DNA of 64,000 nt, from NCBI GenBank assembly GCA_964646975.1, contig CAZYGJ010000013.1, positions 2,466 to 66,465 of the forward strand, given 5' to 3'. How positions within the stretch are numbered: position 1 is the stretch's first letter; each line of letters begins with the position of its first letter. Below the pieces are notes generated by a model, which did no database searches, was not told the DNA's origin, and saw nothing but the letters and a program-made list of their open reading frames with translations. This document shows positions 3,264 through 64,000 of this stretch, piece after piece. The translations under genes and the position numbers were made by a program. The DNA comes from an uncultured Ruminococcus sp. Lineage in GTDB: Bacteria; Bacillota; Clostridia; Oscillospirales; Acutalibacteraceae.

Positions 3264-3880
3264 TGCTGCGACGGCAATCCCTCAGTCAGCTTCGCTGACA
3301 GCTCCCTTTGCACAAGAGAGCCTTGAAAGGTAGCACATTTTAATAACAATGATAGCTGTGAAAAAGTTTTCAGTTATTCTATTGTAGGAAATGTTATATT
3401 TAAATAATACGCTACTGCGACAGACAATCCCTCAGTCATTTTGCAGGCAAAATGACAGCTCCCTTTGCACAAGGGAGCCGTGAAAAGTTGCATATTTCGG
3501 ATAAATTGATAGATATGGAAAAGTTTTCTGATAGCTGAAAGTATAGTTTTTTTGCTCAACATTTCCGCAAAATCAAAGCCTCCCTTGTGTAAAGGGAGGT
3601 GGCAAAAATCGAAGATTTTTGACGGAGGGATTGAAAGCGTTTATGTTAGATGAACGTTAAAATTTAAAACCAAAGCTTCCACACGCACCAAGCCCTCACT
3701 TGAGGGAGGTGGCACGACGAAAGTCGTGACGGAAGGGTGAGCAAAGGAAATGGAGTTAATCAGTTACCCAAAATCATCATTGAGGGAATAAAGCTTCATA
3801 ATCACGGAAGCAATGCAGTGTGCGGACGGGTGTAATTTTTTAAAAATATATCAAACTCAACTGCGGTGAAATGCACTAAA
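3264..3880. repeat. Mosaic REP-like array 1
   Basis: Double-hairpin repeats at 3275-3322 and 3425-3479 (+), 3578-3633 and 3692-3741 (-), ~80 bp module near 3812-3877, linkers shared with the other arrays. Confidence 0.9.
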
Positions 3881-3995
3881 AGCAAAGAACCGTACAGGGG
3901 TCTGTACGGTTCTTCGCAAGGGGTTAGATAAGGAAATGGGTATGAGTGGAACGGATGCTTTCGCATCCAAGTGGAAAGTTAGTTAAACCGCCGAT

Positions 3996-10075: not shown

Positions 10076-11092
10076 TTACTTTTTGTTTTTCTTTTTCTTC
10101 TTATCGGAAGATTTTTTTGACTGATTTTTGTTGTCTGTTGTGCTTACCTCGTGAGGAGCGTAAACATAGGGAACACTCGCCTCGTTTTGATAAAGCAGGG
10201 CAACGTGTCTTGCCTCCGAATTAGCTGTAAGCTGAGCGGGGCTGAAAATTTTGCCGAGCAAAATTGACTGAATCAAGCTGAGCAATGCCGAAATTATCCA
10301 ATAGAACGCAACTGCCGCAGGAACGGAGTATGCGATATATGCGGAAAACAGCGGAAGAATGTAAAACATAACCTTCATACAACCCTGTTGTTGATTCATC
10401 TGGTTGCCGTTTATCTTCTGCGTAATCACCTGAGAGCCTACGTTTGAAAGGAAGCACAGCACGGGGAACAAAATGTACCACGATGCAAAACCGAATTGGC
10501 TCGGAATTGCAAGCAAATCAACGCCCAATGTGTTAAAGCCCTGTTCAAACATCTGAATCTGAGCGATTTCAGCCGAGCTGAAAAGCCCCTGAATAGCCTC
10601 TGTGTTCTGAATGTTCGGGAAAATTGTCAACAAATTAATCTGCTGATATGTCTGGTTTGCGTTCATCACATAGCCGGGGATTGTGTCAATGTAGTTTACC
10701 GCCGCCTGAACGCTTTCGGAATTGAGGTGAAGTGTGTTTGTAAGCGGATATGCAACCGCATAAAATACGCCCAAAATTACAAGCAACGGAATAAGCATCG
10801 TAAGACAGCCGCCGCCAAACGGGCTGACGCCCTCTTTTTCGTACAGCTTGCTCATTTCCTCCTGAGCCTTTTGCTTGTTGTTGGCATATTTTTCTTTAAT
10901 TTCCTGTTGCTTTTTGCTCAGCCTTGCCGTGCTTGCCATAGACTTTTGCTGTTTGATTGAAAACGGGAACAGCACCAGCTTGACAACGAGCGTAAACAGG
11001 ATAATCGAAAGACCGAAGTTCTTAATAACATAGAAGATTCCCCACAATATGTAGCCGAGAAAGCCTCCGAGAAATCCGAAAATATATTGCAT
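10076..11092 (-). CDS. yidC: Membrane protein insertase YidC
   Basis: NFGLSIILFT, KLVLFP, GGGCL, YWIIS; canonical operon position. Confidence 0.93.
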   Translation of the reverse strand: MQYIFGFLGGFLGYILWGIFYVIKNFGLSIILFTLVVKLVLFPFSIKQQKSMASTARLSKKQQEIKEKYANNKQKAQEEMSKLYEKEGVSPFGGGCLTMLIPLLVILGVFYAVAYPLTNTLHLNSESVQAAVNYIDTIPGYVMNANQTYQQINLLTIFPNIQNTEAIQGLFSSAEIAQIQMFEQGFNTLGVDLLAIPSQFGFASWYILFPVLCFLSNVGSQVITQKINGNQMNQQQGCMKVMFYILPLFSAYIAYSVPAAVAFYWIISALLSLIQSILLGKIFSPAQLTANSEARHVALLYQNEASVPYVYAPHEVSTTDNKNQSKKSSDKKKKKNKK

Positions 11093-11784: not shown

Positions 11785-11919
11785 TTAATAAGACAACCTT
11801 TTTCTACCTTTAGCTCTTCTTCTTGATAAAACCTTTTGTCCGTTAGAAGTGGACATTCTCTTTCTGAAACCATGCTCCTTTTTTCTGTGGAGCTTCTTAG
11901 GCTGATATGTTCTCAACAT
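11785..11919 (-). CDS. rpmH: 50S ribosomal protein L34 (absent from ORF track)
   Basis: Manual translation [44 protein letters not shown]. Confidence 0.96.
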
Positions 11920-11993
11920 ACTGAAAACCTCCCTTCAAAATATAACCTTGCAATATAGCATTATACCTTAGTTTTGCGTTTTCGTCAACACTT

Positions 11994-13372
11994 TTTTGCA
12001 TTTTTGTACATTTCACCGCAGGAATGTTTGATGTGCTTTCAAAGGCGTAAACACGTCCGAACACTGCATCTAATTCAAACATTTTTGTGCATTTCACCGC
12101 AGGAAGCTTTGATGTGCTTTCAAAGCTATGAACTCGTCCTAATACTGCATTTAAGTTATAATTTAGATGTCACTTTTCAAGGCTCTCTTGTGCAAAGGGA
12201 GTTTTTGTGCATTTCATCGCAGTAATGTTTGATGTGATTTCAAAGGCGTAAACACGTCCAAACACTGCATTTAATTCAAGCCTTTTGCCTACAAAATGAC
12301 TGAGGGATTGCCTGTCGCAGTAGCGTATTATTTAAATTTAACATTTTCTACAATAGAATAACTGAAAACTTTTTCACAGCTATCATTGTTATTGAAATAT
12401 GAACACTTCCAAGGCTCCCGCTTGAGGGGAGCTGTCAGCGAAGCTGACTGATGGGTGGACACTGCATTACTTCCGTGATTATGAAGCTTTATTCCCTCAA
12501 TAATGTTTTTGAAAAAATTTTAACTCCATTCTCTCAGCTCACCCTTCCGTCACGACTTTCGTCGTGCCACCCTCCCTCAAGTGAGGGCTTGGTGCGTATG
12601 GAATTTTTTGCTTGAAAATCTGACGCTAATCTAACAGAAATGTTTACAATCCCTCCGACAAAAATTTTTGTCTATTCAGCGTAGGCAGGTTATATTTAAA
12701 TCCAACATAACATTCTCGTCCTAATACCACATTTAGTTCAAGCATTTTTGCCACCTCCCTTTACACAAGGGAGGCTTTGATTTTGCGGAAATGTTGAGCA
12801 AAAAAACTATACTTTCAGCTATCAGAAAACTTTTCCATATCTATCAATTTATCCGAAATATGCAACTTTTCACGGCTCCCTTGTGCAAAGGGAGCTGTCA
12901 TTTTGTCTACAAAATGACTGAGGGATTGCCTGTCGCAGTAGCGTATTATTTAAATTTAACATTTCCTTAGCTCACCCTTCCGTCACGACTTCGTCGTGCC
13001 ACCCTCCCTCAAGTGAGGGCTTGGTGCGTATGGAATTTTTTGCTTGAAAATCTGACGCTAATCTAACAGAAACGCTTTCAATCCCTCCGACAAAAATTTT
13101 TGTCTATTCAGCGTAGGCAGGTTATATTTAAATCCAACATAACATTCTCGTCCTAATACTGCATTTAATTCAAGCATTTTTGCCACCTCCCTTTACACAA
13201 GGGAGTTTTTGTGCATTTCATCGCAGTTGTGTTTGATAATAATTCAAAGTTTACACCCGTCCGCACACTGCATTTTGGTTATAATTTAAATGTCACTTTC
13301 CAAGGCTATCTTTATTATTGAAATGTGCTACCTTCCAAGGCTCTCTTGTGCAAAGGGAGTTTTGCCCATTTC
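11994..13372. repeat. Mosaic REP-like array 2 (largest)
   Basis: Tandem 81 bp modules at 12000 and 12081; about 8 whole or partial double-hairpin repeats in both orientations; internal ~235 bp near-duplication (12537-12770 vs 12970-13203). Confidence 0.92.
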
Positions 13373-16035: not shown

Positions 16036-17090
16036 TTTTGCCTATTCAACGCAGGTGGATTGTCAGCGTTTCTGTTAGATTAGCGTCAGATTTTCAAGCA
16101 AAAAATTCCATACGCACCAAGCCCTCACTTGAGGGAGGGTGGCACGACGAAGTCGTGACGGAAGGGTGAGTTGAGAGAATGGAGTTAAAATTTTTTCAAA
16201 AACATTATTGAGGGAATAAAGCTTCATAATCACGGAAGTAATGCAGTGTCCACCCATCAGTCAGCTTCGCTGACAGCTCCCCTCAAGCGGGAGCCTTGGA
16301 AGTGTTCATATTTCAATAACAATGATAGCTGTGAAAAAGTTTTCAGTTATTCTATTGTAGAAAATGTTAAATTTAAATAATACGCTACTGCGACAGGCAA
16401 TCCCTCAGTCATTTTGTAGACAAAATGACAGCTCCCTTTGCACAAGGGAGCCGTGAAAAGTTGCATATTTCGGATAAATTGATAGCTGTGGAAAAGTTTT
16501 CTGATAAATTAAACCTTAGATTTTAGTTGAACATTTCCGTAAAATCAAAGCCTCCCTTGTGTAAAGGGAGGTGGCAAAATGCTTGAATTAAATGCAGTGT
16601 TAGAACGTGAATGTTATGTTGGATTTAAATATAACCTGCCTACGCTGAATAGACAAAAATTTTTGTCGGAGGGATTGAAAGCGTTTCTGTTAGATTAGCG
16701 TCAGATTTTCAAGCAAAAAATTCCATACGCACCAAGCCCTCACTTGAGGGAGGGTGGCACGACGAAGTCGTGACGGAAGGGTGAGCTAAGGAAATGTTAA
16801 ATTTAAATAATACGCTACTGCGACAGGCAATCCCTCAGTCATTTTGTAGACAAAATGACAGCTCCCTTTGCACAAGGGAGCCTTGGAAAGTGACATCTAA
16901 ATTATAACCAAAATGCAGTGTTCGGACGTGTTTACGCCTTTGAAATCACATTAAACCTACCTACGCTGAAATACACAAAAACGTTTGAATTAAATGCAGT
17001 GTGCGGACGTGTTCACAGTTTTGAAAACACATTAAACTTAACTGCGGTGAAATGCACAAAAATGCTTGAATTTCGCCGCAGTAATGTTTA
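16036..17090. repeat. Mosaic REP-like array 3
   Basis: Same modules as array 2 in opposite overall orientation; 16070-16425 is nearly the reverse complement of 12283-12639. Confidence 0.92.
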
Positions 17091-18767: not shown

Positions 18768-21308
18768 TTATTCGTTCACTTCGGAATTATCGGAATTTTC
18801 AGCATCGTCGGCAACCTCTGCCGTCTTCTCACCGCTTTCCTCGGTCGGCTCTGTGCTTTCCTCCTCGGCTTCGTGCGGAGCACGAGCCACAGTCACAACC
18901 TTGTCGCCGTCGCCTGTTTTCATCAGCGTAACGCCCTTTGCGGGACGTGAACAAATTCTGATGGTTTCGGCGGCAATTCTGATGATAATTCCGTCCTGAG
19001 AAATGATTATAACGTCGTCGTCAAGGTCTACCACCTTGATTGCGGCAACATCGCCGTATTTTTCAACGTGATAGTTGGTAAGACCCTTGCCGCCTCTGCT
19101 TTGAACACGATAGTCGTCGGGACTTGAAAGTCTGCCGTAGCCTGTTTCGGACACGGTGAGAACATAACCGCCCTCACGCACAACGCTCATTCCCACAACG
19201 CAGTCGCCCTCCTTGAGCTTCAACGCCTTAACACCACGAGCCTGTCTGCCCATAGGACGAACGTCGGTTTCATTAAAGCGAATTGCAACGCCCTTTTTGG
19301 TTGCGACAATAACCTGACTGTTGCCGTCGGTCATTCTTACCCACGCAAGCTCGTCGCCGTCGTTTAATTCAAGTGCAATCAAGCCGCCCTTGCGTGCCGT
19401 GTTGTATGCACTGAGTGCAATCCTCTTGATAATGCCATGACGGGTTACCATAATCAGGTATTTTTCCTCGTCAAACTCAGGCACTCTTATCATTGAAGTC
19501 ACCTTTTCGTCGGTAGAAAGAGGCAAAAGATTAGCAATGTTAATGCCCTTTGACTGTCTGCTTCCTTCGGGAACTTCATAGCATTTAAGCCTGTAAACCC
19601 TGCCCTTGTCGGTAAAGAACAGAACATAGTCGTGCGAATTGATGATAAACATTTCGGAGGCAACGTCCTCCTCACGCCTTGACATACCCGAAACACCACG
19701 TCCGCCTCGGCGTTGCAGCTTGTAGGTGTCAACCGCAAGTCGCTTAACATAACCGAACTGAGTGAGCGTAAGCACACATTCCTCCTGCGGAATAAGGTCT
19801 TCAATGTCAACCTCACCGCTGACTGAGCAAATCTCGGTTCTTCTGGGGTCTGCATACTTGTTGCGAAGAGCGATAAGCTCCTCTTTAACGATTTCAAGCT
19901 TTCGTGTTTCGCTTGCAAGAATTTCAAGATATTCCTTAATCTTTGCCTGCAAAGTGGCAATTTCCTCGTCAATCTTGGCACGCTCCATATTTGTGAGCTG
20001 TCCCAATCGCATCTGAACAATCGCCTGAGCCTGAATCTCGTCAAGACCGAAGCGTTCCATAAGTGCGGCTCTTGCACTCGGCAAATCGGGGCTTTTGCGA
20101 ATCAATGCGATAACCTCGTCGATAAAGTCAATCGCAATCTTCAAGCCCTCCAAAATATGCTCTCTGTCCTGAGCCTTTTTAAGGTCAAACTCGGTGCGGC
20201 GGCGGATAACCTCCTCCTGAAACTCAATGTAGCACTTGAGCATTTCCTTGAGTGTAAGGATTTTCGGCTCGCCGTCAACAATGGCAAGCATAATCGCACC
20301 AAAGGTAGTTTGAAGCTGAGTATAAGAAAACAACTGGTTAAGCACGATTTGAGGCGAAGCGTCACGCTTTACGTCAATTTCAATGTGCATACCGATTCTG
20401 TCGGAGTGGTCTTCAATATTTGAAATGCCCTCAATCTTTTTGTCTTTAACAAGGTTTGCAATGGTTTCAATCAGCCTTGCCTTGTTCACCTTGTAGGGCA
20501 GCTCGGTTACAATAATCTTAAATCTGCCGTTTTTAGCCTCAACGATTTCGGTTTTGGCACGAACGGTAATCTTACCCCTACCTGTTGCATAAGCGGCTCT
20601 TATTCCGCTTCTGCCCATAATTATGCCGCCTGTCGGAAAGTCCGGACCCGGCAACGCCTCCATAAGCTCGGCAACCTCGGCGTCGGGGTTGTCAATCAGC
20701 GTGCAAACAGCGTCAATGGTTTCGCCCAGATTGTGGGGCGGAATTTCGGTTGCCATACCAACGGCAATACCGCTTGAACCGTTTACAAGCAGGTTTGGAA
20801 AACGGCTCGGCAAAACAACAGGCTCTTTAAGTCTGTCATCGTAGTTGGGGATAAAGTCAACTGTGTTTTTGTCGATGTCGGTGAGCATATCCATAGATAT
20901 TTTGCTCATTCTTGCTTCTGTGTAACGATAAGCAGCAGGCGGGTCACCGTCAACCGAACCAAAGTTTCCGTGACCGTCAACCAGCATATATCTCATCGAA
21001 AAGTCCTGAGCAAGTCGAACCATTGCGTCATAAACCGAGGTGTCACCGTGAGGGTGATACGAGCCCAGCACAGAACCAACGGTGTCGGCACATTTGTGGT
21101 AAGGCTTTGACGGCTCAAGACCTCTTTCAAACATTGTGTAGAGAATACGACGGTGAACAGGCTTCAAGCCGTCACGCACGTCGGGCAAGGCTCTTGAAAC
21201 GATAACACTCATCGAGTAATCAAGAAAGCTCTTACGCATCTCGCTTTGCAGGTCAACGTCAATTATTCTTTTTTCTGTCTGCTGTTCATTCATCTGTTCA
21301 TTATCCAT
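18768..21308 (-). CDS. gyrA: DNA gyrase subunit A
   Basis: [22 protein letters not shown] active-site region, GyrA-box QRRGGRG. Confidence 0.98.
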
Positions 21309-21335
21309 TTTTTACCTCTTTTATATAATCAGCGT

Positions 21336-21925
21336 AATTTTGTGTATTTCAACGTAGTTAAATTTGATGTGTTTACAAAATAGTGAACGCGTCCTAACAC
21401 TGCATTTTGGTTATAATTTAGATGTCACTTTCCAAGGCTATCATTGTTATTGAAATGTGCTACCTTTCAAGGCTCCCGCTTGAGGGGAGCTGTCAGCGAA
21501 GCTGACTGAGGGGTGGACACTGCATTACTTCCGTGATTATGAAGCTTTATTCCCTCAATAATGTTTTTGAAAAAATTTTAACTCCATTCTCTCAACTCAC
21601 CCTTCCGTCACGACTTCGTCGTGCCACCCTCCCTCAAGTGAGGGCTTGGTGCGTGTGGAAGCTTTGGTTTTAAATTTTAACGTTCATATAACATAAACGC
21701 TTTCAATCCCTCCGACAAAAATTTTTGTCTATTCAGCGTAGGCAGGTTATATTTAAATTCAACATAACATTCACGTTCTAACACTGCATTTAATTCAAGC
21801 ATTTTTGCCACCTCCCTTTACACAAGGGAGGCTTGGATTTTGCGGAAATGTTGAGCGAAAAATAATACTTTCAGCTATCAGAAAACTTTTCCACAGCTAT
21901 CAACTAAACCAAAATATGCAACTTC
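21336..21925. repeat. Mosaic REP-like array 4
   Basis: ~80 bp module, hairpin repeats near 21474, 21595 and 21713-21833, shared linkers; fills the thioesterase-gyrA spacer. Confidence 0.9.
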
Positions 21926-22419: not shown

Positions 22420-24453
<2,034 letters not shown>

Positions 24454-24477
24454 TTACCTCTTTTATATAATCAGCGT

Positions 24478-25621
24478 AATTTTGTGTATTTCAACGTAGT
24501 TAAATTTGATATGTTTACAAAGTAGAGAATGCGTCCTAACACTGCATTTTGGTTATAATTAAAATGTCACTTTCCAAGGCTCCCTTGTGCAAAGGGAGTT
24601 TTTGTGCATTTCATCGCAGTAATGTTTGATGTGATTTCAAAGGCGTAAACACGTCCAAACACTGCATTTAATTCAAGCCTTTTGCCTGCAAAATGACTGA
24701 GGGATTGCTTTACCTCAATGTCTATATACTCACACACTCCACGAAAATTACTGTTTACTTCGTTATTAGGAATGCGAATTATTTTTAAGCTATACTCTTT
24801 AAGAAATTCAGAACGTTGTGCGTCCTTCTGAACATTACTGTCCTCGTAATGTTGTGAACCGTCCAATTCAATTACAAGCTTTGCTTCTGCACAATAAAAA
24901 TCTGCAATATATTTTCCGAGAATTTTTTGCCTTGAAAAACGTACGGGATATGAACGCAGAAAATCATACCAAAGATGCCTTTCTTCTTTTGTCATTTTTT
25001 TCCGCAGTTGCCTTGCAAACGGAACTAATTGCTTATTATGTTTTGGTTGCACAGCTACAATCCCTCCGTCAAAAATCTTCGATTTTTGCCACCTCCCTTT
25101 ACACAAGGGAGGCTTGAATTTTGCGGAAATGTTGAGCGAAAAATTATACTTTCAGCTATCAGAAAACTTTTCCACAGCTATCAATTTAATCTAAAGATAA
25201 AGCATTTCCAAGGCTCCCGCTTGAGGGGAGTTTTTGTGCATTTCATCGCAGTAATGTTTGATGTGATTTCAAAGGCGTAAACACGTCCAAACACTGCATT
25301 TAATTCAAGCCTTTTGCCTGCAAAATGACTGAGGGATTGCCTGTCGCAGTAACGTATTATTTAAATATGACATTTTCTACAATAGAATAACTGAAAACTT
25401 TTTCACAGCTATCATTGTTATTGAAATATGAACACTTCCAAGGCTCCCGCTTGAGGGGAGCTGTCAGCGAAGCTGACTGATGGGTGGACACTGCATTACT
25501 TCCGTGATTATGAAGCTTTATTCCCTCAATAATGTTTTTGAAAAAATTTTAACTCCATTCTCTCAACTCACCCTTCCGTCACGACTTCGTCGTGCCACCC
25601 TCCCTCAAGTGAGGGCTTGGT
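24478..25621. repeat. Mosaic REP-like array 5, containing the DUF559 gene
   Basis: Perfect 115 bp direct repeat 24594-24708 / 25226-25340; hairpin repeats on both sides of the nuclease ORF. Confidence 0.92.
24567..25052 (-). CDS. DUF559 (Vsr-like, PD-(D/E)XK) endonuclease embedded in a repeat array
   Basis: ARQLRKKMTKEERHLW..F.RQ..YIADFYC..KLVIELDGSQH..D..R..L..IIRIPN signature; probable GTG start at 25052; ~115 aa core plus a 46 aa repeat-encoded tail. Confidence 0.88.
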   Translation of the reverse strand: MQPKHNKQLVPFARQLRKKMTKEERHLWYDFLRSYPVRFSRQKILGKYIADFYCAEAKLVIELDGSQHYEDSNVQKDAQRSEFLKEYSLKIIRIPNNEVNSNFRGVCEYIDIEVKQSLSHFAGKRLELNAVFGRVYAFEITSNITAMKCTKTPFAQGSLGK

Positions 25622-31981: not shown

Positions 31982-32580
31982 TTGCATTTTTGTGCATTTT
32001 TGTGCATTTCACCGCAGTAATCTTCGATATGTTTTCAAAGTAGTGAACACGTCTTGATACTGCATTTAATTCAAACGTTTTTGTGCATTTCAACGTAGTT
32101 AAATTTGATATGTTTACAAAGTAGTGAACACGTCCTAATACTGCATTTAAGTTATAATTTAGATGTCACTTTCCAAGGCTCCCTTGTGCAAAGGGAGCTG
32201 TCAGCGTAGCTGACTGAGGGATTGCCTGTCACAGTAGCGTATTATTTAAATATAACATTTCCTACAATAGAATAACTGAAAACTTTTTCACAGCTATCAT
32301 TGTTACTAAAATATGAACACTTCCAAGGCTCCCTTGTGCAAAGGGAGTTTTTGTGCATTTCAACGTAGTTAAATTTGATATGTTTTCAAAGTAGCGAACA
32401 CATCCGCACACTGCATTTTATTCAAGCATTTTTGCTTGCAAATGACTGAGGGATTGCCTGTCGCAGTAGCATATTATTTAAATATAACATTTCCTCAGCT
32501 CACCCTTCCGTCACGACTTCGTCGTGCCACCCTCCCTCAAGTGAGGGCTTGGTGCGTGCGAAAGCTTTTGATTTTGAAAA
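31982..32580. repeat. Mosaic REP-like array 6
   Basis: Tandem ~80 bp modules, hairpin repeats near 32177-32224, 32327 and 32499-32548; lies between convergent genes. Confidence 0.9.
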
Positions 32581-34974: not shown

Positions 34975-35030
34975 GTGTTCACAATTTTGAAAACGCATCA
35001 AACATTACTGCGATGAAATGTGCAAGAATA
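34975..35030 (-). repeat. Solo partial ~80 bp module between infB and rbfA
   Basis: gtgttcacaattttgaaaacgcatcaaacattactgcgatgaaatg matches array copies such as 17009-17056. Confidence 0.7.
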
Positions 35031-39999: not shown

Positions 40000-40075
40000 G
40001 CTGATATAGCTCAGGAGGTAGAGTGCGTCCTTGGTAAGGACGAGGTCACGGGTTCAAATCCCGTTATCAGCTCCA
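40000..40075 (+). tRNA. tRNA-Thr(GGT), integration site (attL)
   Basis: 76 nt cloverleaf, anticodon loop TT-GGT-AA, CCA; promoter TTGAAA-17-TATGAT at 39934-39962. Confidence 0.96.
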
Positions 40076-40242
40076 AGGTGAAAACCGCATTGGAAAGCCG
40101 TTTTTAGGTATTATCCCGTGTGGTTTTTCTTTTTCTTTAAAGGAATTATAGGGTGATTTGCTGTTTATTTGACGTTTATTGTCGCTCTGATTTACTTTTA
40201 TTTACTTCAAATCACAAAAAGATAGAGGTATACAGCCTTGTT

Positions 40243-41430
40243 TTATGCTCTTTTTCGATTGGTGTTTAAAATTGCTTCAAAGGTGTTTGCGGCTTCCTTT
40301 TCGGCTTGTTCTACTGCGTGCACATAACGGTTGGTAGTTTTTAACTGAGTGTGACCAAGTCTTGTGGCAACGTTTTTGATGTTTGTTCCGTTGCTTAGTA
40401 AAAGCGTTGCCGAGGTATGCCGCAAAGCGTGGAATTTTTTGTGTTCCAATCCGTTACGCTTTAGAAATTTGCTAAACCATTGTGTGGGCGTTGTCGGGTA
40501 CATAGGCTTTCCGTCTGCTTGCGTAAATATCCAATTATCGCCGCTCCAACGGTCACCGAGCAACAGTTGATATTGTGCTTGCTCTGCCTTGAATTGTTTG
40601 AGCATGGTGAGCATATACGGCGGCAACATTATAGCCCTGCTTTTGCCTGTTTTTGGGGATTTGCTTTTTATCTCTGTTTCGCCTGTCAGCTTGTAATTAC
40701 TGCGGCATACACTTAAAATGCCTGTTTTATAGTTTACATCTTCCCATTTTAATCCCACAAGCTCACCACGGCGGCAACCTGTGTTTAATGCAAGGTGTAT
40801 CAATAATTTATATTGCAACGGCTCATTTTCTAAGCAGTCAAGAAGCTTTGCAAGCTCATCATCTGTGAATATTTCCGTTGTTTGTTCTTCAAGTTTCGGC
40901 AGGGTTATACGGTCGCTGTCGGCAGGGTTTATGCCTATTAAGCCGAGCTTGTAGGCACTGTGTAATATTGATTGCAACATTGTATAATATCTGCGTACCG
41001 TTGAGCTTGACAGCTTGCCGCTCGTTCCGTCAAGGTGTGTGTCACGTTCTTCAAGTGCATTTACAAATTTTTGTATGTGTATGGGTTTGATGTCTTTGAG
41101 CTTCATATGTCCGAGCATTGGGATAATGCAGATATTAAGCATACGGTTGTATTTTTCAAAAACCACGGGTGAAAGCCTGTGCTTTGCGTTTTCAAGGTAT
41201 ACAGGCACATAATCAGCTAATTTCATTCTGCCGTCAGCGGCGGCAGCTCCGTTGTTGCATTGTTCCTCAAACAACACCGCCTGCCGCTGTACTTCCTTTT
41301 CAATCTGTCTTGCGGTCATATTAGGCTCTGGCGTATAGGTCATTGTGCGGCGTATCTGTTTACCGTTTAGGTCATAGCCGCAGGAAACCGTTATTTGATA
41401 ACTGCTTTTGCGTTTACGAATTGTTGCCAT
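40243..41430 (-). CDS. int: Tyrosine recombinase/integrase
   Basis: TGCRRGE, FHALRH, LGH..TTNRYVH; N-terminal arm-binding domain. Confidence 0.95.
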   Translation of the reverse strand: MATIRKRKSSYQITVSCGYDLNGKQIRRTMTYTPEPNMTARQIEKEVQRQAVLFEEQCNNGAAAADGRMKLADYVPVYLENAKHRLSPVVFEKYNRMLNICIIPMLGHMKLKDIKPIHIQKFVNALEERDTHLDGTSGKLSSSTVRRYYTMLQSILHSAYKLGLIGINPADSDRITLPKLEEQTTEIFTDDELAKLLDCLENEPLQYKLLIHLALNTGCRRGELVGLKWEDVNYKTGILSVCRSNYKLTGETEIKSKSPKTGKSRAIMLPPYMLTMLKQFKAEQAQYQLLLGDRWSGDNWIFTQADGKPMYPTTPTQWFSKFLKRNGLEHKKFHALRHTSATLLLSNGTNIKNVATRLGHTQLKTTNRYVHAVEQAEKEAANTFEAILNTNRKRA

Positions 41431-42187
41431 TGCTTTCACCTGCACTTTTTATAATTATATCATCCATCAATATTAGTTTTTCTTTTACTGTTTTTTCTTT
41501 TTCTTCAATTTCGTTTAGCTTATCACTTGCAAATGATTTAAACGCTTCTTTAAAATCATCAGTAATGAGGTGTCGGTTAATTCTGATATTTTTTCTTATC
41601 TCACTTGTTTTTGTATAAAAAGTTAAATACTGTTGTGTTAAGTGAGGAACATCTACTTCATTTATGTCAAAGTCAATAATCTGATTATACAATGCAATAC
41701 AACATTCTATATTCCTATAATAATCATACAAGACAGAGCCTTGCTCATTAAAAACAGGGTTATATTTAGAGGATAAAAAACCGTTTATAAACGTCAAATC
41801 AAGTTCGGCATTTTGAGAATTTTTGCCGCTTATTATTAATGATATTTTTTCTGCTTTTGCGTTGTTTTTATTCGCTTTTATTTTTTGAATATAGTGTAAT
41901 CTTTTGACCGATTTTTCATCAAGTCCTGTGTATGAACAAATTAATTGCAGATTTTCATTTGTTGTGGCAACATCAGATAAACCAAGTAAATAGTCTGTTG
42001 TTGTGTTATAATGAGTGGCAATAATAACTAAATGTTCTAAATTCGGCACTCTTGCCCCGTTCTCATAGTAAGAAATTATTTGCCTTTTAACTTTAAGTAA
42101 CGCTGCTAATTCTTCTTGTGTTTCCGTTTTTGCTTCCCTTAATTTTCGTATCCTGTCACCTGTTTTGATTTTGCTGATTTTCGACAT
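41414..42187 (-). CDS. XRE-family HTH repressor
   Basis: RIRKLRE..TQEELAALL..ISYYENG..P; AAGGAG SD before ATG 42187. Confidence 0.88.
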   Translation of the reverse strand: MSKISKIKTGDRIRKLREAKTETQEELAALLKVKRQIISYYENGARVPNLEHLVIIATHYNTTTDYLLGLSDVATTNENLQLICSYTGLDEKSVKRLHYIQKIKANKNNAKAEKISLIISGKNSQNAELDLTFINGFLSSKYNPVFNEQGSVLYDYYRNIECCIALYNQIIDFDINEVDVPHLTQQYLTFYTKTSEIRKNIRINRHLITDDFKEAFKSFASDKLNEIEEKEKTVKEKLILMDDIIIKSAGESNGNNS

Positions 42188-42330
42188 TTTCAAACTCCTT
42201 TGCAACATATGTGTTGCAATTAATTAATTATGCAACAAAACTGTTGACTTGTTGATGTTGTTACCTTATAATATTAGTGTAACAGTTGAATAATTCATTG
42301 TCAACAATTTTATGAAAGGAAGAATAAACT

Positions 42331-42519
42331 ATGGTAACAAACAAAGAAATCAGAAAAGCGGCAACAGAAAGGGGCGTGTTCCTGTGGGAAATTGCTGATA
42401 CTCTCGGAATATATGACAGCTCATTCAGTCGCAAACTGCGGAAAGAGCTTCCGAGAGCGGAAAAACAGAGAATATTGCAAATCATTGATGAAATTGCAGA
42501 CAGAAAAAATAAGAGTTGA
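42331..42519 (+). CDS. Small Cro-like HTH protein
   Basis: LWEIADTLGI..SFSRKLRKEL; promoter TTGACT-17-TATAAT at 42244-42272, divergent from the repressor. Confidence 0.75.
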   Translation: MVTNKEIRKAATERGVFLWEIADTLGIYDSSFSRKLRKELPRAEKQRILQIIDEIADRKNKS

Positions 42520-42641
42520 TAAAAGAAAACTGCCGCTCTGACATCAACCTATCAGAGCGGCAAAGAAAAAAAGATATACAGCCTAATATTATTATAACAT
42601 ATTATTATGGGCTGTAAAGATATATACGAAAGGAAATTTAT

Positions 42642-42920
42642 ATGAAAAACATTCAATTAATATCAGAACAGCCGACACTTCCCCGTATGAGAACAGTTGC
42701 GGAAGCGACAGCAGAAATAAAAGCGGCAGACCCCAACACGGGTGTCACGGAGTATCATATACGACAGCTTGCAATATCGGGAGTTTTGCCGAGGGTAAAA
42801 GCAGGAAGAAAAATGCTGATAAACCTTGATGTGCTTATTGAATACTTACAAGACCCGACAGCAGAAAAATTCAAGGTTCGCAACGCCGCTGCGAATAACG
42901 GTATCAAAAGAATTGTGTGA
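42642..42920 (+). CDS. Excisionase-like DNA-binding protein
   Basis: MRTVAEA..IRQL..LPRVKAGRKMLINLD, MerR/HTH_17-like pattern. Confidence 0.75.
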   Translation: MKNIQLISEQPTLPRMRTVAEATAEIKAADPNTGVTEYHIRQLAISGVLPRVKAGRKMLINLDVLIEYLQDPTAEKFKVRNAAANNGIKRIV

Positions 42921-42933
42921 GGCGGCGGAACAA

Positions 42934-43305
42934 ATGGCAAAGTCAAAACCAACACCTTTTAAACCGTGGGAAACAACAAAAACAAACGGCATTGAACTGC
43001 GATATATAAGAATGGGTGTTACTCAAATGTCGCACCCTGCAACAAAATCTCTTTCACATTCAGCGTTTAGAGTTTATGAATATATGAAAATCGAAAGTGG
43101 CGGACACAAAGAGTTTGAATACCCGTACTCAAAATTTAAAACAATCATTTCAAAAAAAGGTTTTCAAAGTGCAGTTGCTGAACTTGTAGAAAAAGGATTT
43201 ATTGTAATTGTTGAAAAAAACAAAAATTTGCGGCTTCCCAATAAATACGCTTTTTCCGATGGTTGGAAAGAGTTTAGCCTTAGAAGTGAAAACCCTTTTA
43301 TTTAA
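42934..43305 (+). CDS. Winged-helix protein, possible replication initiator
   Basis: LSHSAFRVY..FQSAVAELVEKGFI pattern; followed by palindromic direct repeats. Confidence 0.5.
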   Translation: MAKSKPTPFKPWETTKTNGIELRYIRMGVTQMSHPATKSLSHSAFRVYEYMKIESGGHKEFEYPYSKFKTIISKKGFQSAVAELVEKGFIVIVEKNKNLRLPNKYAFSDGWKEFSLRSENPFI

Positions 43306-43333
43306 AAGAATATATGGCTATATATAGAATATC

Positions 43334-43472
43334 TGACTACTACGAAGTCAAGCAAGATTTGAATTTATGTGCAATGCTTGACTACTACAAAGTCAAGGTA
43401 ATAAGAAAATAATAAATATCTTGACTACTACGAAGTCAAGGCATCGGGTTTGCTTGACTACTACAAAGTCAG
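43334..43472 (+). repeat. Four iteron-like palindromic repeats
   Basis: TGACTACTAC(G/A)AAGTCA at 43334, 43379, 43422, 43455. Confidence 0.85.
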
Positions 43473-43648
43473 CAAAACAAACTATTGCCTAATTCTATAC
43501 AACTCTATACAAGCAACATTAAACGCCCCGTACCAACCGATTTCGGTTGATATGAGGCGTTTATTTCTTATGCACCATTTGCACCCCTGCGTGATGGTTT
43601 CCGCTCTGCCTTGTTGCAGCAAGATAGAGCGGCTTTATAAGATTGTAA

Positions 43649-43888
43649 TTATCGGCAGCTCCTCTTTTTTGCTCGTTCTTCTCTTATACCTTGTATTCTG
43701 CCTGTGTCATACATAAAAGAAAGCACCTTAAAAAAGTCCCATAGTATATCCTTGTCTACTGCTTTGGTTGCTCTGTATGCAACGTACAATAATTTTACCC
43801 TGTGTATTTCCTCTATTTTCATGTAATTGCTGAGAGCTAAAGCCTCCTGCGGTTCTATTAATGCAGATGGCAAGTGTTTTCCGTTCAT
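43649..43888 (-). CDS. Hypothetical protein
   Basis: 79 aa ORF with AAGGAG SD, ends YDTGRIQGIREERAKKR. Confidence 0.5.
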   Translation of the reverse strand: MNGKHLPSALIEPQEALALSNYMKIEEIHRVKLLYVAYRATKAVDKDILWDFFKVLSFMYDTGRIQGIREERAKKRSCR

Positions 43889-44039
43889 AAATTCTACTCC
43901 TTTAAATTGATTTTTCAGAGCGGCAAGGTTATGCTCTGATATAAGCGAGGTTTATTAACATCGGAATAATGTTGGAAAATGTTGGAGATTAGGCATTAAG
44001 TGTGTACATTGTTTTCACTCCCTTTCAGTTAGTGTGGAT

Positions 44040-44471
44040 TTACACCTTCAATTCAATTTCTAATCCGTAATTCATAAAGGATTGAAACATTCCTTTAACT
44101 TCACGGAAACGGCTTGTAATTGTCTTTCCGCTGTCAATCAACGGAGCTACAAAAGCCGCCAAAGTCTTTGGAAGATAGCCCATAGTATAAGCCCCTTTGT
44201 TTCTGACTGTTGCAATTACCGCTACTGCGTTGCTGTCATAACAGTTTGAGTGGTCACGATACAGGCTTATTTTTATATCCTCGGAGCGGTAGTGCGTTAA
44301 GTTTTCAATGGCCTTTTGGCGTTTGCCGTAGGTCACGCCCGAAACCTTTGTTGATACACTTTGCATTTTGACGAGTACCCACGCTTTAACCATTGCATTA
44401 GCTCTGTTGTAACCCTGCTTTACAAGTTGGTTTGCTATTGTCATTACTTTGCTATGTGCTGTGCGTTTCAT
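44040..44471 (-). CDS. HIRAN-domain protein
   Basis: KVSGVTY..RQ..L.R..N.YDSNAVAV..GYLP. Confidence 0.82.
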   Translation of the reverse strand: MKRTAHSKVMTIANQLVKQGYNRANAMVKAWVLVKMQSVSTKVSGVTYGKRQKAIENLTHYRSEDIKISLYRDHSNCYDSNAVAVIATVRNKGAYTMGYLPKTLAAFVAPLIDSGKTITSRFREVKGMFQSFMNYGLEIELKV

Positions 44472-44664
44472 CTGTAACGCCCCTTTCCTTAACTCTGTAA
44501 CTATATTGTATCATAGTTAGTACATTAATGCAATAGTCGAAGTGTACAAACTTTGATACAAAACTTTGTTTATATTTGTACTTGCGTTAATACATAACTT
44601 GTGCTATAATTTGTATAGTGGAAAAGATGACTTATATAAAAACAGTCCCGAAAGGAGTGTAAAA

Positions 44665-44889: not shown

Positions 44890-44909
44890 GATTGAAAGGC
44901 TATTAAATA

Positions 44910-45284: not shown

Positions 45285-45292
45285 AATTGTTG

Positions 45293-45321: not shown

Positions 45322-45327
45322 TTAAAT

Positions 45328-46824: not shown

Positions 46825-47500
46825 GCCTCCATTTGATGAGGAAGGTAGCAAAAAAGCTTGAAGTAAATGCAGTGTGCGGACGTGTTTGCTGCTTTGAAAG
46901 TACATCAAATATTACTGTGATGAAATGCACAAAAACACCCCTCAAGAGGGAGCCTTGGAAATGCTTTATCTTTAGATTAAATTGATAGCTGTGGATAAGT
47001 TTTCTGTTCAATAAAACCTTAGATTATAGTTGAGCGTTTCTGTAAAATCCAAGCCTCCCTTGTGTAAAGGGAGGTGGCAAAAATCGAAGATTTTTGACGG
47101 AGGGATTGAAAGCGTTTTTGTTAGATTAACGTCAGATTTTCAAGCAAAAAATTCCGTCCGCACCATGCCCTCACTTGAGGGAGGGTGGCACGACGAAGTC
47201 GTGACGGAAGGGTGAGCTGAGGAAATGTCATATTTAAATAATATGCTAATGCGACGGCAATCCCTCAGTCATTTTGCAAGCAAAATGACAGCTCCCTTTG
47301 CACAAGGGAGCCTTGAAAAGTGACATCTAAATTATAACTTAAATGCAGTGTGCGGACGTGTTCACATCTTTGAAATCACATCAAACATTACTGCGATGAA
47401 ATGCACAAAAAAGCTTGAAGTAAATGCAGTGTGCGGACGTGTTTACGCCTTTAAAATCACATCAAATATTACTGCGGTGAAATGCACAAAAAAGCTTGAA
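46825..47500. repeat. Mosaic REP-like array 7
   Basis: Hairpin repeats near 47052-47108, 47167-47217 and 47257-47312; tandem ~80 bp modules 47340-47500. Confidence 0.9.
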
Positions 47501-51002: not shown

Positions 51003-51405
51003 GATTTTGCACAAAAACTCCCCTCAAGCTGGAGCCTTGGAAATGTTCATATTTCAATAACAATGATAGCCTTGGAAAGTGACATTTAAATTATAACCAA
51101 AATGCAGTGTTAAGACGCGTTCGCTACTTTGTAAACATATCAAATTTAACTACGTTGAAATGCACAAAAACTCCCTTGTGTAAAGGGAGGTGGCAAAAAT
51201 GCTTGAATTAAATGCAGTGTTTGGATGTGTTTGTGCCTTTGAAATCACATTAAACCTTACTGCGGTGAAATGCACAAAAATTTTTGTCGGAGGGATTGAA
51301 AGCGTTTATATTATATGAACGTTAAAATTTAAAACCAAAGCTTCCGCACGCACCATGCCCTCACTTGAGGGAGGGTGGCACGACGAAGTCGTGACGGAAG
51401 GGTGA
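51003..51405. repeat. Mosaic REP-like array 8
   Basis: Two ~80 bp modules and three hairpin repeats in minus orientation. Confidence 0.9.
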
Positions 51406-58621: not shown

Positions 58622-58686
58622 TTTGCAGTAATCTTCGATGTGATTTCAATGATGTGAACCCATCCGAACACTGCATTTAACTCAGG
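58622..58686 (+). repeat. Solo degenerate ~80 bp module
   Basis: gcagtaatcttcgatgtgatttcaa...ccgaacactgcatttaa. Confidence 0.6.
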
Positions 58687-63196: not shown

Positions 63197-64000
63197 ACCA
63201 AAGCTTCCACACGCACCATGCCCTCACTTGAGGGAGGGTGGCACGACGAAGTCGTGACGGAAGGGTGAGCTGAGGAAATGTCATATTTAAATAATACGTT
63301 ACTGCGACAGGCAATCCCTCAGTCATTTTGCAGGCAAAAGGCTTGAATTAAATGCAGTGTTTGGACGTGTTTACGCCTTTGAAATCACATCAAACATTAC
63401 TGCGATGAAATGCACAAAAACTCCCTTTGCACAAGGGAGCCTTGAAAGGTAGCATATTTCAATAACAATGATGGCTGTGGAAAGTGACATTTAAATTATA
63501 ACCAAAATGCAGTGTGTGGACGGGTGTAAACTTTGAATTATTATCAAACACAACTGCGATGAAATGCACAAAAACTCCCCTCAAGCGGGAGCCTTGGAAA
63601 TGCTTTATCTTTAGATTAAATTGATAGCTGTGGAAAAGTTTTCTGATAGCTGAAAGTATAATTTTTCGCTCAACATTTCCGCAAAATTCAAGCCTCCCTT
63701 GTGTAAAGGGAGGTGGCAAAAATGCTTGAATTAAATGCAGTGTTAGGACGATAATGTTATTTTGATTAAAATATAACCTGCCTACGCTGAATAGACAAAA
63801 ATTTTTGTCGGAGGAATTGAAAGCGTTTATGTTATATGAACATTAAAATTTAAAACCAAATCTTCCACACGCACCAAGCCCTCACTTGAGGGAGGGTGGC
63901 ACGACGAAGTCGTGACGGAAGGGTGAGCTGAGGAAATGTCATATTTAAATAATACGCTACTGCGACAGGCAATCCCTCAGTCATTTTGCAAGCAAAATGA
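63197..64000. repeat. Mosaic REP-like array 9 (runs off the window end)
   Basis: Starts ~18 bp after the mreB stop; ~63312-63426 is the reverse complement of the 115 bp unit flanking the DUF559 gene. Confidence 0.92.

Follow-up and report, generated by a model that had tools for sequence, protein, structure and literature searches.

M81, an 81-bp module from an uncultured gut Ruminococcus, is a real, abundant and non-coding AT-rich spacer unit of hairpin-rich intergenic repeat arrays. These arrays are lineage-specific mosaics, within which M81 is probably shuffled by recombination at shared motifs, with no transposition of its own. The analysis covered a stretch of 64 kb (64,000 nucleotides, hereafter the window) together with short strain contigs. 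A BLAST search of the window with the copy at 12205-12285 returned 34 matches with E-values down to 1e-38, so the module is present, far above chance, at the places where a preliminary description of this DNA had put it. The refined count was 28 copies, namely 22 of type M81 and six of a divergent sister type, N, which is 61-65% identical to M81 (Table 1). Nine intergenic mosaic arrays hold 26 of the 28, the exceptions being two solo copies. These solo copies, proposed earlier at 34975 and 58622, do exist (34975-35028 and 58625-58678), but as partial modules of 54/71 nt at 83% identity rather than complete ones. The 81-bp tandems described earlier were also recovered: TRF detected pairs of period 81 at four loci (11999-12154, 16911-17072, 31997-32150 and 47340-47500), whose head-to-tail units are 83-92% alike. 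Direct reading of the sequence places two TGCATTT motifs at unit positions 7 and 65, in agreement with the 58-nt spacing first noticed.

The copies are not uniform. Subfamilies follow context: slot b holds M and slot c holds N, M2 is found at array edges and M3 follows H4 or H2. Along the unit, variable blocks alternate with conserved blocks, and the ends are the most conserved part, with 15 nt at the left and 9-11 nt at the right nearly invariant.

Table 1. Copies of M81 and N and neighbouring parts in the window
Feature	Position	Strand	Context
M81 core (M3-like)	3812..3881	-	Starts at the parB terminator hairpin's T-tract; joined at ACTGCATT to module E2
M81 unit (core + tail)	12001..12081	+	First of tandem pair, 5' edge of array B; ~10 nt upstream of the -35 of an rpmH promoter-like site
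M81 core, 71 nt	12082..12152	+	Ends at ACTGCATTT, runs on into module B and hairpin H1
H1 hairpin GGCTCTCTTGTGCAAAGGGAG	12181..12201	+	H part of left-type DUF559-cassette end; with the TTTTT after it, looks like an intrinsic terminator
M81 unit	12202..12282	+	Slot b (H hairpin to S1' hairpin)
S1' remnant hairpin TTTTG-CCTA-CAAAA and TGACTGAGGGATTGCC box	12283..12312	+	Left-type cassette end without CTGTCA
CAATCCCTCC box and GACAAAAA arm	12647..12664	+	Right-type cassette end; together with the start of N forms palindrome GACAAAAATTTTTGTC
N unit, 80 nt	12665..12744	+	Divergent M81 sister, slot c
TTTT-TGCCACCTCCCTTTACACAAGGGAG, the H4 hairpin	12745..12773	+	Right-type cassette end
N unit	13097..13176	+	Slot c
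M81 core (M3)	13206..13275	+	After H4; followed by B-U-U-H1
N unit	16580..16659	-	Slot c
M81 tandem pair	16911..17062	-	5' edge of array C; full unit 16982-17062, core 16911-16981
M81 core (M2)	21338..21407	+	Edge of array D, immediately upstream of gyrA
N unit	21722..21801	+	Slot c; orthologous site of another strain has an M2 unit
M81 core (M2)	24480..24549	+	Edge of array E, immediately upstream of gyrB
DUF559 (Vsr-like) endonuclease gene	24567..25052	-	161 codons here; box-S-H ends on both flanks
M81 unit	24599..24679	+	Slot b; orthologous site of strain L001 lacks it (CTGTCA instead)
M81 unit	25231..25311	+	Slot b, after H2
10-nt mini-repeats TGCATTTTTG	31983-32009		Ahead of the array F tandem pair
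M81 tandem pair (M2)	31997..32148	+	5' edge of array F
M81 unit (M2)	32348..32428	+	Slot b
Solo partial M81	34975..35028	-	infB-rbfA interval, without a nearby hairpin
M81 unit	46855..46935	-	After H2, 3' end of array G
M81 tandem pair	47341..47492	-	5' edge of array G, upstream of ddl
M81 core (M2)	51100..51170	-	After H4; followed by B-U-H2
M81 unit	51200..51280	-	Slot c, the position usually held by N
Solo partial M81	58625..58678	+	Unit positions 18-71, 83%
M81 unit	63340..63420	-	Slot b; within a ~400-nt stretch absent in strain L154
M81 core (M3)	63505..63574	-	After H2; within the stretch absent in strain L154
N unit	63723..63801	-	Slot c

The arrays make up about 13% of this region. 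Polarity and module order are the same in all nine window arrays and in three others, which lie on a distant contig (L158) from a related strain; the order is (M t)n M B U* H [S1/S2/M t S1'] K (E1 U H S2 E2) F G [L/N t/M t] H4 [I U H / M B U* H], with alternatives divided by slashes. The array hairpins are CTCCCTTGTGCAAAGGGAG, CTCCCGCTTGAGGGGAG and CCTCCCTTTACACAAGGGAGG, and GC content alternates between hairpin modules (56-71%) and linker modules (26-39%). Most window arrays begin with M81 at the 5' edge, and both complete array starts on the L158 contig begin with M81 units as well. There, array 2 starts after a degenerate hairpin and array 3 at the rpsI terminator T-tract. Together with the array that begins at parB in the window, at least two arrays thus start exactly at a T-tract that belongs to a native terminator hairpin, which hints at a site preference. 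A DnaA-box-like TTTTYCACA in modules I and E1 was judged a chance-level match. Origin-proximal enrichment, considered from contig depth (about 36 copies per genome against at least nine in the window), was dropped, as the distant 11-kb contig carries three arrays.

The GC-rich array hairpins derive by amplification from a ~480-bp cassette that carries a DUF559 endonuclease gene; they are copies of its inverted double-hairpin ends. The protein, of 122-161 aa, matches Pfam PF04480 (E = 1.5e-28), NCBIfam also returns a DUF559 model, and its nearest structure by PDB match is 3HRL. Each cassette end spans about 50 nt and consists of two different hairpins, H and S, plus a GAGGGATTG box. The same H-S-box ends flank the gene in 5/5 loci examined (the window, L143, L147, L151 and L153), and a miniature cassette without the ORF occurs in a related species. 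More than 8000 DUF559 homologues above the search threshold were found in gut Clostridia collections, the best 120 of them being 73-84% identical, and the cassette with these hairpin ends is conserved across gut Clostridia. Its hairpins have undergone a huge expansion in some genomes but are rare in related ones. At 24599..24679, M81 adds 25 in-frame codons to the DUF559 ORF, in its 3' extension.

A census of the junctions of all 28 window copies, in line with the genome-wide alignment that the preliminary description had advised, gave discrete rather than scattered breakpoints. The left edge is always a T-run (TTTTTG). What comes before it varies: a GC-rich hairpin, the A5 arm of a hairpin, the preceding module or unique sequence. 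In numbers, nine copies follow GGGAG/GGGTG, six a previous tail, six CCGACAAAAA and seven unique DNA. The right end falls either after ACTGCATTT or after the tail AATTCAAGCN, which is then followed by TTTT(T)G. Here, 16 copies show the tail with TTTT(T)G, nine run on into module B, one is fused to E2 and two are solo.

Edges of this kind might be expected if M81 were a non-autonomous mobile element, moved in trans by an enzyme with its gene elsewhere in the genome. It would insert at TTTTTG, by preference immediately 3' of a GC-rich hairpin, with duplication of the T-run, tandems arising as each unit brings a new target. TTTTTG is indeed found at the left edge of 23/28 copies, as the first six bases of the unit, and TTTT(T)G after 16/16 full-length units; the conserved termini, the two solo copies away from hairpins and one site with strain presence/absence agree with such an element too. 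In addition, 9/23 non-tandem copies lie directly after a hairpin, compared with 5.4% of control T4+G sites outside arrays (mostly coding), and the array starts at the parB and rpsI terminators point the same way. These figures are suggestive of a preference of the module for a hairpin plus T-run. The hairpin-adjacent counts are, however, not independent events, because identical copies lie within long identical blocks, M81 and N are precisely swapped at one site, and subfamily tracks context, all of which also speak against mobility.

The comparison of filled and empty sites argues further against insertion. At one locus in two strains, GGGAG[CTGTCA]TTTTGCC corresponds to GGGAG[81 nt]TTTTGCC; the copy at 24599-24679 thus stands in place of CTGTCA, as had been proposed, and the CTGTCA form GGGAG[CTGTCA]TTTTG is seen at 12890 and four other places in the window. 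Slot c takes the two forms CAAAAA[TCTTCGA]TTTTTGCC and CAAAAA[80 nt]TTTTTGCC. There, the copy at 12665-12744 lies between CCGACAAAAA and TTTTTGCCACC, where AAAAATC-TTC-GATTTTTG is found elsewhere. The hairpin at 12648-12779 is split by a copy, as described earlier, but that copy is the divergent N rather than a member of the same module family. A filled site equals the empty site minus 6-7 nt plus 80-81 nt, and the clean empty sites GGGAG-TTTTG-CCTGC and ACAAAAATTTTTGCC were not seen. Target-site duplication of the MITE kind (filled = empty + element + duplicate) was thus rejected, the filled sites having no CTGTCA or TCTTCGA. Nor do the TTTTTG motifs on both sides of the copy amount to a target duplication, which the preliminary description had thought they resembled: the left one makes up the first six bases of essentially every unit and is thus not a duplicated target, while the right TTTT(T)G is part of the neighbouring module, whether M81 is present or not.

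M81 has no terminal inverted repeats, no internal hairpin and no subterminal hairpins, its ends being direct repeats (TGCATTT at 7 and 65), and nine copies stop 10 nt early, running into module B. The window contains neither a transposase nor an element that combines an ORF with M81 ends, no RAYT-type transposase was seen there, and TnpA/TnpB was absent among the window ORFs scanned; the sole tyrosine recombinase in the window is the integrase of a tRNA-Thr island. We therefore consider a mobile element unlikely. What stands of the earlier idea of a second element nested in the first is a separable unit with discrete hairpin-side junctions and strain presence/absence, while insertion with target duplication does not.

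Duplicated blocks point instead to recombination. Four M81 units, at 12202..12282, 24599, 25231 and 63340-63420, are 100% identical, and all of them sit within identical duplicated blocks of 104-349 nt. The shared homology extends 104-349 nt rightward and 0-62 nt leftward, breaking exactly between GGGAG and TTTTTG. Strain comparison gave a similar picture. Orthologous arrays differ in tandem number (1 vs 2); over all loci, counts of 1, 2 and 3 units were seen, with the gyrB and ddl upstream regions varying by strain and the distant L158 locus holding three. At the array G edge upstream of ddl, a single unit or another boundary is present in other strains. At 21722..21801, M2 is exchanged for N with identical flanks. 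Deletions with microhomology or homology at their bounds also distinguish the arrays: the ~400-nt indel with two M81 units, absent in L154, is bounded by CATTTCC. A 1158-nt skip between strains has 28 nt shared at its joint, and cassette presence also differs between strains at orthologous arrays.

M81, N and a dozen other modules occupy the gaps between and within cassette ends, and M81 probably changes place and number in two ways. Within tandems, unequal crossing-over or slippage of the 81-bp units would change copy number; between arrays, ectopic homologous or microhomology-mediated recombination and gene conversion would move the modules. The exchange points probably lie in short motifs common to the modules, namely TTTT(T)G, GGGAG, ACTGCATTT and CATTTCC, and M81 would thus appear nested at TTTT(T)G junctions. 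We infer further that the DUF559 nuclease may drive this shuffling, its nicks at hairpins stimulating recombination. Several points count against the recombination model: the initial union of M81 with hairpin or unique DNA still requires an illegitimate event, which the model does no more than name; end recognition by an enzyme would give the same nearly invariant M81 ends; the array polarity with M81 at the 5' edge is unpredicted by plain homologous recombination; and the arrays that begin at terminator T-tracts hint at a site preference.

The nuclease may also be given a more direct part, as in the second idea of the preliminary description, with M81 as filler copied into DUF559 breaks at the nuclease's own hairpin ends, so that the internal junctions would mark cleavage. 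Within the cassette end, both internal slots (b and c) do fall at the S hairpin, between H and the GAGGGATTG/CAATCCCTC box; only S variants with T/A runs (S1 and S3) contain M81 or N, and S2 and the S hairpin of module F contain neither; and the Vsr/DUF559 group includes a homing endonuclease (PMC3424549). Most copies, in contrast, lie outside the S hairpin, at array edges, in tandems or after H4. Since the same 81 nt recur, another copy must be the template, which makes filler a special case of the recombination model rather than a rival. As a separate explanation it is rather improbable.

We looked for features of M81's own as well. One of its six frames is open across all four tandem pairs (57-60 codons), and, together with the 25 in-frame codons in the DUF559 ORF, this might suggest a 27-residue repeat peptide; a small RNA was the other product considered. 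Codon-phase variability was flat (0.171/0.149/0.156), the synonymous fraction showed no excess in the open frame (0.22) over the other two (0.26 and 0.37), and the frame is closed in subfamily M3. A protein search with its translation matched one predicted protein in 5.8 billion, from the same species. On the RNA side, Rfam gave no match to M81 at the gathering threshold or at E<=1, RNAalifold on the M81 alignment found four pairs with no compensatory change and no covarying structure, and single-sequence folds were no better than shuffles (z-scores -0.28 to +0.9). A small RNA or peptide is thus largely refuted, and by far the least probable of the explanations weighed here.

A role in cis is improbable too. 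M81 might be retained as a regulatory or architectural module whose T-run completes a terminator, whose 5' end on the other strand serves as a -35 and whose blocks bind protein. The hairpin with TTTTTGTG at 13187-13205 has a terminator-like score, a TTGAAA-16-GATTAT site with the M2 end as its -35 lies ahead of both gyrA and gyrB, one array edge is 10 nt from the rpmH promoter-like site, and conserved and variable blocks alternate. However, array orientation relative to the flanking genes is mixed, about half being co-directional and half opposite, and promoter-like matches were no higher than shuffle expectation. In the one metatranscriptome with the species, of which contigs were available, M81 depth relative to DNA was about 0.25 against 0.4-0.6 for flanking genes, a weak measure. 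Moreover, the closest species have compact, module-free spacers at the same genes.

The module appears confined to this lineage in the material covered. The gyrB loci of 80 species, six of them at 86-91% GyrB identity, contained no M81, and a strict two-end pattern gave 0 matches in JGI metagenome contigs. A 3'-end pattern gave 32 metagenome matches and one viral match, all single; none extends to M81 by BLAST, and they were set aside as chance. The preliminary description had set its reading against junctions scattered with no preferred position and against a module never occurring independently of the hairpins in related genomes; the junctions are discrete, and in the sampled loci of related genomes and the public collections scanned the module was not found at all.

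Several known repeat systems resemble parts of these arrays. BIMEs/REP of enterobacteria and BOX of pneumococci are modular intergenic repeats of palindromic units and a few linker motifs, in which the tandem number of the middle module (boxB; the BIME-2 unit) varies between strains. To our knowledge M81 has no sequence relation to them, and its unit is longer and without a palindrome. Like a minisatellite or VNTR, M81 forms 81-bp head-to-tail units whose copy number varies between strains at one locus, but it goes beyond one locus, with dispersed single copies that occupy fixed slots in a larger mosaic. Unlike a MITE, it has neither terminal inverted repeats nor target-site duplication. Palindrome-associated elements derived from IS200/IS605 combine subterminal hairpins at both ends with insertion 3' of a short fixed target and no duplication; M81 has no such hairpins, and its fixed left TTTTTG is repeated inside tandems as part of the unit.

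The closest analogues of the arrays are the Neisseria NIMEs and the Ssn nuclease/hairpin pairs. In NIMEs, the 20-bp dRS3 inverted repeat ATTCCCNNNNNNNNGGGAAT (ATTCCCN8GGGAAT) flanks arrayed RS families of about 50-150 bp, which are defined by their flanks alone and possibly inert; as of 2007, NIMEs were reported solely from Neisseria (PMC1797815). The Ruminococcus arrays likewise have short GC-rich inverted repeats whose arms are conserved and whose centre varies (here CTCCC-N7-9-GGGAG), flanking AT-rich spacers of ~30-150 bp from a limited set of families, and M81 corresponds to an RS element. Clustering in arrays, with comparable module grammar and lengths, the GC wave, and syntenic positions with number and length variable between strains are further likenesses. 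The differences are that the Ruminococcus hairpins do not carry the dRS3 ATTCCCNNNNNNNNGGGAAT sequence, that the phylum is Bacillota, that the ends are ~50 nt with two hairpins and a box, and that the arrays have a strict polarity and order, with 81-bp tandems of M81 and slots inside a hairpin end.

Ssn nucleases are flanked by hairpin repeats (NTS/SRM; PMC11893778). As in that account, a very small single-domain nuclease gene here has hairpin repeats on both sides (5/5 loci), amplified in the genome and rare in relatives. The enzyme is DUF559/Vsr-like PF04480 rather than GIY-YIG cd10448, the Ruminococcus hairpins, judged by inspection alone, fall outside the published SRM consensus, and spacer cassettes like M81 are not described for Ssn in the passages of PMC11893778 consulted. 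By analogy, the DUF559 endonuclease and its double-hairpin ends could be an Ssn-NTS-like pair on a different fold, grown into NIME-like arrays in this Ruminococcus, a reading that is possible but doubtful. The enzyme would nick at the hairpin base (between GGGAG and T, or between A5 and T5), and repair from an ectopic copy would co-convert the neighbouring M81 spacer, so that M81 junctions would report cleavage positions. Arrays may then have been seeded where a native terminator hairpin with its T-tract resembles the site.

On its own M81 is an ordinary kind of spacer repeat, and its value is that of a marker. It reveals that a gut Firmicute carries arrays built like Neisseria NIMEs, which disrupt short-read assemblies and are hot spots of strain-level rearrangement extending into gene starts; gyrA and gyrB have an identical 5' end in common. 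Should the DUF559 link prove functional, it would provide a testable substrate for a protein family that is very large and uncharacterised.

Querying the window with the M81 copy at 12205-12285 returned 34 BLAST matches with E-values down to 1e-38, and a search with four subfamily cores gave 28 non-overlapping copies, namely 22 of M81 (subfamilies M, M2 and M3) and six of the sister type N, which is 61-65% identical to M81. The 71-nt core of the unit, TTTTTG-TGCATTTCA...ACTGCATTT, is followed by a 10-nt tail (t), AATTCAAGCN, and the TGCATTT motif occurs twice per unit with starts 58 nt apart. Period-81 pairs were detected by Tandem Repeats Finder at 11999-12154, 16911-17072, 31997-32150 and 47340-47500. 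The tandem at 12000/12081 that had been reported in the preliminary description is therefore present, as are its solo copies near 34975 and 58625, but the latter are partial (54/71 nt, 83%).

A census of both sides of the 28 copies established that M81/N junctions are discrete, which bears out the preferred junctions proposed earlier. On the left, copies follow GGGAG/GGGTG (nine), a preceding tail (six), CCGACAAAAA (six) or unique DNA (seven), and TTTTTG stands at the unit start in 23/28. On the right, 16/28 run through the tail into the TTTT(T)G of the following module (M81, hairpin module S1' or H4, or an H variant), and 9/28 end at ACTGCATTT with module B directly after it; of the remaining three, one has a fusion to E2 at ACTGCATT and two stand alone. 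Array borders (31983-32009, 11994-12006, 51069-51078 on the - strand, and 10950-10975 of the distant contig L158) carry mini-repeats of the unit start, TGCATTTTTG / TTTTTGT(GCA), which suggest slippage or repeated exchange inside the first 10 nt of the unit.

Spacer annotation against a library of 22 modules drawn from the window established a module grammar. All nine window arrays have a single polarity and a single order, (M t)n M B U* H [S1 | S2 | M t S1'] K (E1 U H S2 E2) F G [L | N t | M t] H4 [I U H | M B U* H], and the same order rules hold in three more arrays on an 11-kb contig, elsewhere in the genome of a related strain. M81 or N takes four places: the array 5' edge, often in tandem; "slot b", with the H hairpin (…GGGAG) on one side and TTTTGCCTGCAAAATGAC on the other; "slot c", bounded by CCGACAAAAA and TTTTTGCCACC; and after H4 or H2, followed by B-U-H. 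GC content is 56-71% in hairpin modules and 26-39% in linkers. By self-comparison, repeated blocks make up 8.4 kb, or 13% of the window, almost all within intergenic spacers. In one metatranscriptome, contig depth, a weak measure, was ~2.3x the DNA-run depth over E2-F (12454-12603), while M81 gave a ratio of 0.25 and flanking genes ~0.4-0.6; a portion of the array may be highly transcribed, or its RNA may be stable.

The hairpin modules of these arrays match the ends of the DUF559 gene. The DUF559 family is very large and highly conserved, with at least 8000 candidates above threshold; the best 120 of these are typically 122-125 aa, mostly 73-84% identical, and come from gut Clostridia. The nearest solved structure is 3HRL, and the literature puts DUF559 in one group with Vsr and a homing endonuclease of a group I intron (PMC3424549). 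At four further loci or species of gut Clostridia, the gene lies in unrelated single-copy contexts with the same inverted ends, AAGCCTCCCTTGTGYAAAGGGAGG-TGGCACGGCAAAGCCGTGAC-GGAGGGATTGTnATG on the left and CAATCCCTCAGTCAGC...GCTGACAG-CTCCCTTTACACAAGGGAGCC on the right. Each end consists of an H hairpin, an S hairpin and a box, which is the ribosome-binding site at the left end and codes QSLS at the right end. Paired substitutions in the S stem among copies (GTCACGGC/GCCGTGAC, GTCATGGC/GCCATGAC, GTCAGC/GCTGAC, GTCATTTTG/CAAAATGAC and GTCAAAAATC/GATTTTTGNC) argue that the S hairpin itself matters. An ORF-less miniature of ~115 nt, H-S-box...box-S-H, was found in a related species (L014, 12077-12190). 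Taken with its ends, the gene resembles either a nuclease/hairpin pair or a small mobile cassette. The ORF always extends into the right-hand end; in the window (24567-24700) an M81 copy adds 25 in-frame codons (…GKRLELNAVFGRVYAFEITSNITAMKCTKTPFAQGSLGK), and the protein has 161 aa; that of strain L001 has 136 aa, and those of other species have 122-125 aa.

Within the window, H1-S1/S2-box corresponds to a left-type cassette end, module F and G-L-H4 to right-type ends, and H-S-box-K-F to a miniature cassette. The arrays are thus amplified DUF559-cassette ends with a limited set of AT-rich linkers that includes M81. A literature search found no link of DUF559 to interspersed repeats.

The preliminary description had considered M81 as a second element inserted with a TTTTTG target duplication. 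It was correct that the AAAAATC-TTC-GATTTTT hairpin is split at 12648-12779 (the inserted copy, at 12665, is of N type) and that CTGTCA is replaced by the module at 24599. The duplication itself is unsupported, because both T-runs belong to modules: the left TTTTTG is part of each unit, including second tandem units and copies beside unique DNA, and the right TTTT(T)G is a property of S1' or H4, with or without M81. Filled sites also lack CTGTCA or TCTTCGA. Upstream of gyrB, the window reads GGGAG[81 nt]TTTTGCC and another strain GGGAG[CTGTCA]TTTTGCC, and in the filled form of slot c 80 nt replace TCTTCGA; the clean empty sites required by the duplication model occurred in none of the sequences examined. 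Four 100%-identical copies (12202, 24599, 25231 and 63420) share ungapped homology of 104-349 nt rightward and 0-62 nt leftward, and given this long flanking homology they represent one copied block rather than four insertions. M81 subfamily tracks context. M81 ends are direct rather than inverted repeats, and the window contains no transposase, the tRNA-Thr island integrase excepted.

Polymorphism of five kinds was established among strains, one being the gyrB-upstream site above. At the thioesterase-gyrA spacer, G2-N-t-H4 of the window corresponds to G2-M2-t-H4 in another strain, between the same flanks; this swap is precise, and the two cassettes have only the first 7 nt and last ~24 nt in common. 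Between two CATTTCC motifs of its mreB-mreC spacer, strain L154 lacks ~400 nt, two M81 copies among them. From the array upstream of IMPDH, 1158 nt are skipped in contigs of two runs, with 28 nt of shared sequence at the joint. One or two tandem units are present at gyrB and at ddl, and three at the distant L158 locus. Separately, in another strain, L001 (= L123 contig k141_160804), thioesterase-gyrB-DUF559 is joined via an array straight to IMPDH-ROK; this order differs from that of the window, so arrays mark synteny breakpoints. A simple chimera in L001 is possible but unlikely, since the shared stretch of 78 nt is shorter than the assembler k of 141. Hence the unit-borne TTTTTG, absent clean empty sites, block copies, cassette swap and homology-bounded differences argue against M81 as a transposon-like insertion with a target duplication. 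Another multicopy element, ending in CCACTGTGGAACTTACTTTGGGAATTAACT, sits in some strains at array borders (L005, L006 and L009, upstream of IMPDH) and once inside M81 (L139, upstream of ddl); as contigs end there, it is probably an insertion sequence.

M81 was also rejected as coding. Codon-phase variability is flat (0.171, 0.149, 0.156), the synonymous fraction is 0.22 in the open frame versus 0.26 and 0.37 in the others, and the opposite-strand frame, open across all tandem pairs, is closed in M3. Its folding energy was no better than that of shuffles (z from -0.28 to +0.9), the alignment fold contained four invariant or one-sided pairs and zero compensatory changes, and Rfam gave no match. 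M81 was absent from the 14-kb gyrB regions of the six closest species, where the gyrB-front spacer is short and repeat-free. A strict two-end pattern had no match in JGI metagenome contigs; with a looser pattern for the 3' end, metagenome and viral contigs yielded 33 single matches, none extending past the pattern; and a protein search with the open-frame translation retrieved one ORF, from the same species. The distribution outside the species rests on these sampled loci and collections and is not proof of absence.

Pfam scans of large ORFs identified the window as a replication-origin neighbourhood of the chromosome. Its genes are serS, parB, parA, parB, rsmG, mnmG, mnmE, jag, yidC, rnpA, rpmH and guaB (IMPDH); ROK kinase, GNAT, tRNAs, gyrA, thioesterase, gyrB, DUF559, recF, dnaN and dnaA; truB through nusA and rimP, then tRNA-Thr with an integrase island; and ddl, murF, upp, a DUF285 repeat protein, zapA, dut and mreB. 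The low-GC island (40000-47000, 37-39%) also carries an HTH repressor-like gene, a HIRAN-domain protein and a PBECR3 nuclease-like gene. The best GyrB relatives are Ruminococcus MAGs and Ruminococcus sp. JL13D9 (86-91% identity), and the exact sequence was found only in gut metagenome runs and short assembly contigs. The 5' regions of gyrA and gyrB, both on the - strand, are 100% identical (21283-21420 and 24425-24562) over the first 27 coding bases (MDNEQMNEQ), the ribosome-binding site and the upstream spacer, then 93% into M2-B; gene conversion carried by the repeat array appears to have reached the start of an essential gene.

Coordinates of features in the window and at comparison loci
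Feature	Position	Strand	Detail
DUF559 gene	24567-25052	-	PF04480, E = 1.5e-28
DUF559 loci with inverted H-hairpin/S-hairpin/GAGGGATTG ends	L143 2400-3220; L147 2445-3005; L151 2870-3500; L153 830-1470		
rpmH (L34, MLRTYQPKK...)	11796-11930	-	below size of ORF list
Promoter-like site TTGACG-17-TATAAT	11960-11988	-	11/12 match; 10 nt from first M81 unit
Stretches compared with L001	13201-16075 and 22506-25303		
Tyrosine integrase	40243-41445		island adjoining tRNA-Thr
Skipping-rope RNA	45352-45430		62.7 bits; in tRNA-Thr island
DUF285/leucine-rich-repeat protein	51497-53767		internal tandem repeats of 78 nt (26 aa)
SAM-I riboswitch	55881-55967	-	beside tRNA-Met

We infer the recombination pathway, and equally any part that the DUF559 nuclease may play in its initiation: M81 would have been carried along and reshuffled by unequal crossing-over among tandem units, and arrays would also have exchanged it by ectopic recombination or gene conversion, the exchange points lying in motifs common to modules. 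Plain recombination does not account for several features, namely that most arrays start with M81, that its termini are its most conserved parts, and that the beginning of at least two arrays coincides exactly with the T-tract of a native terminator hairpin (that of parB at window position 3881 and that of rpsI on L158). As a further such feature, a GC-rich hairpin directly precedes 9/23 non-tandem copies versus 5.4% of control T4+G sites, the counts being non-independent and the controls mostly genic. Together these observations are compatible with a site preference for a hairpin followed by a T-run, which could be that of a mobile M81 or that of nuclease-induced breaks whose repair draws on another array.

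In NIMEs, 20-bp dRS3 inverted repeats flank >100 families of ~50-150-bp RS elements, and the arrays are syntenic yet variable among strains, with a GC wave (PMC1797815). Three of the four defining features of NIMEs are found in the window arrays, but the dRS3 sequence is not, so these are not NIMEs. They do behave like NIMEs, and we read M81 as the counterpart of the RS spacer. The genes of Ssn, a family of small GIY-YIG nucleases, have on either side the hairpin repeat that these enzymes cleave in single-stranded form, and some species hold this repeat in hugely expanded numbers (PMC11893778). The DUF559 cassette shares the flanking hairpins and the expansion, whereas its putative nuclease has another fold.

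BIME/REP and BOX elements are looser analogues. M81 is a new spacer family within a known kind of mosaic repeat, and the surrounding system, NIME-like arrays from DUF559-cassette ends in a Firmicute, is worth following.
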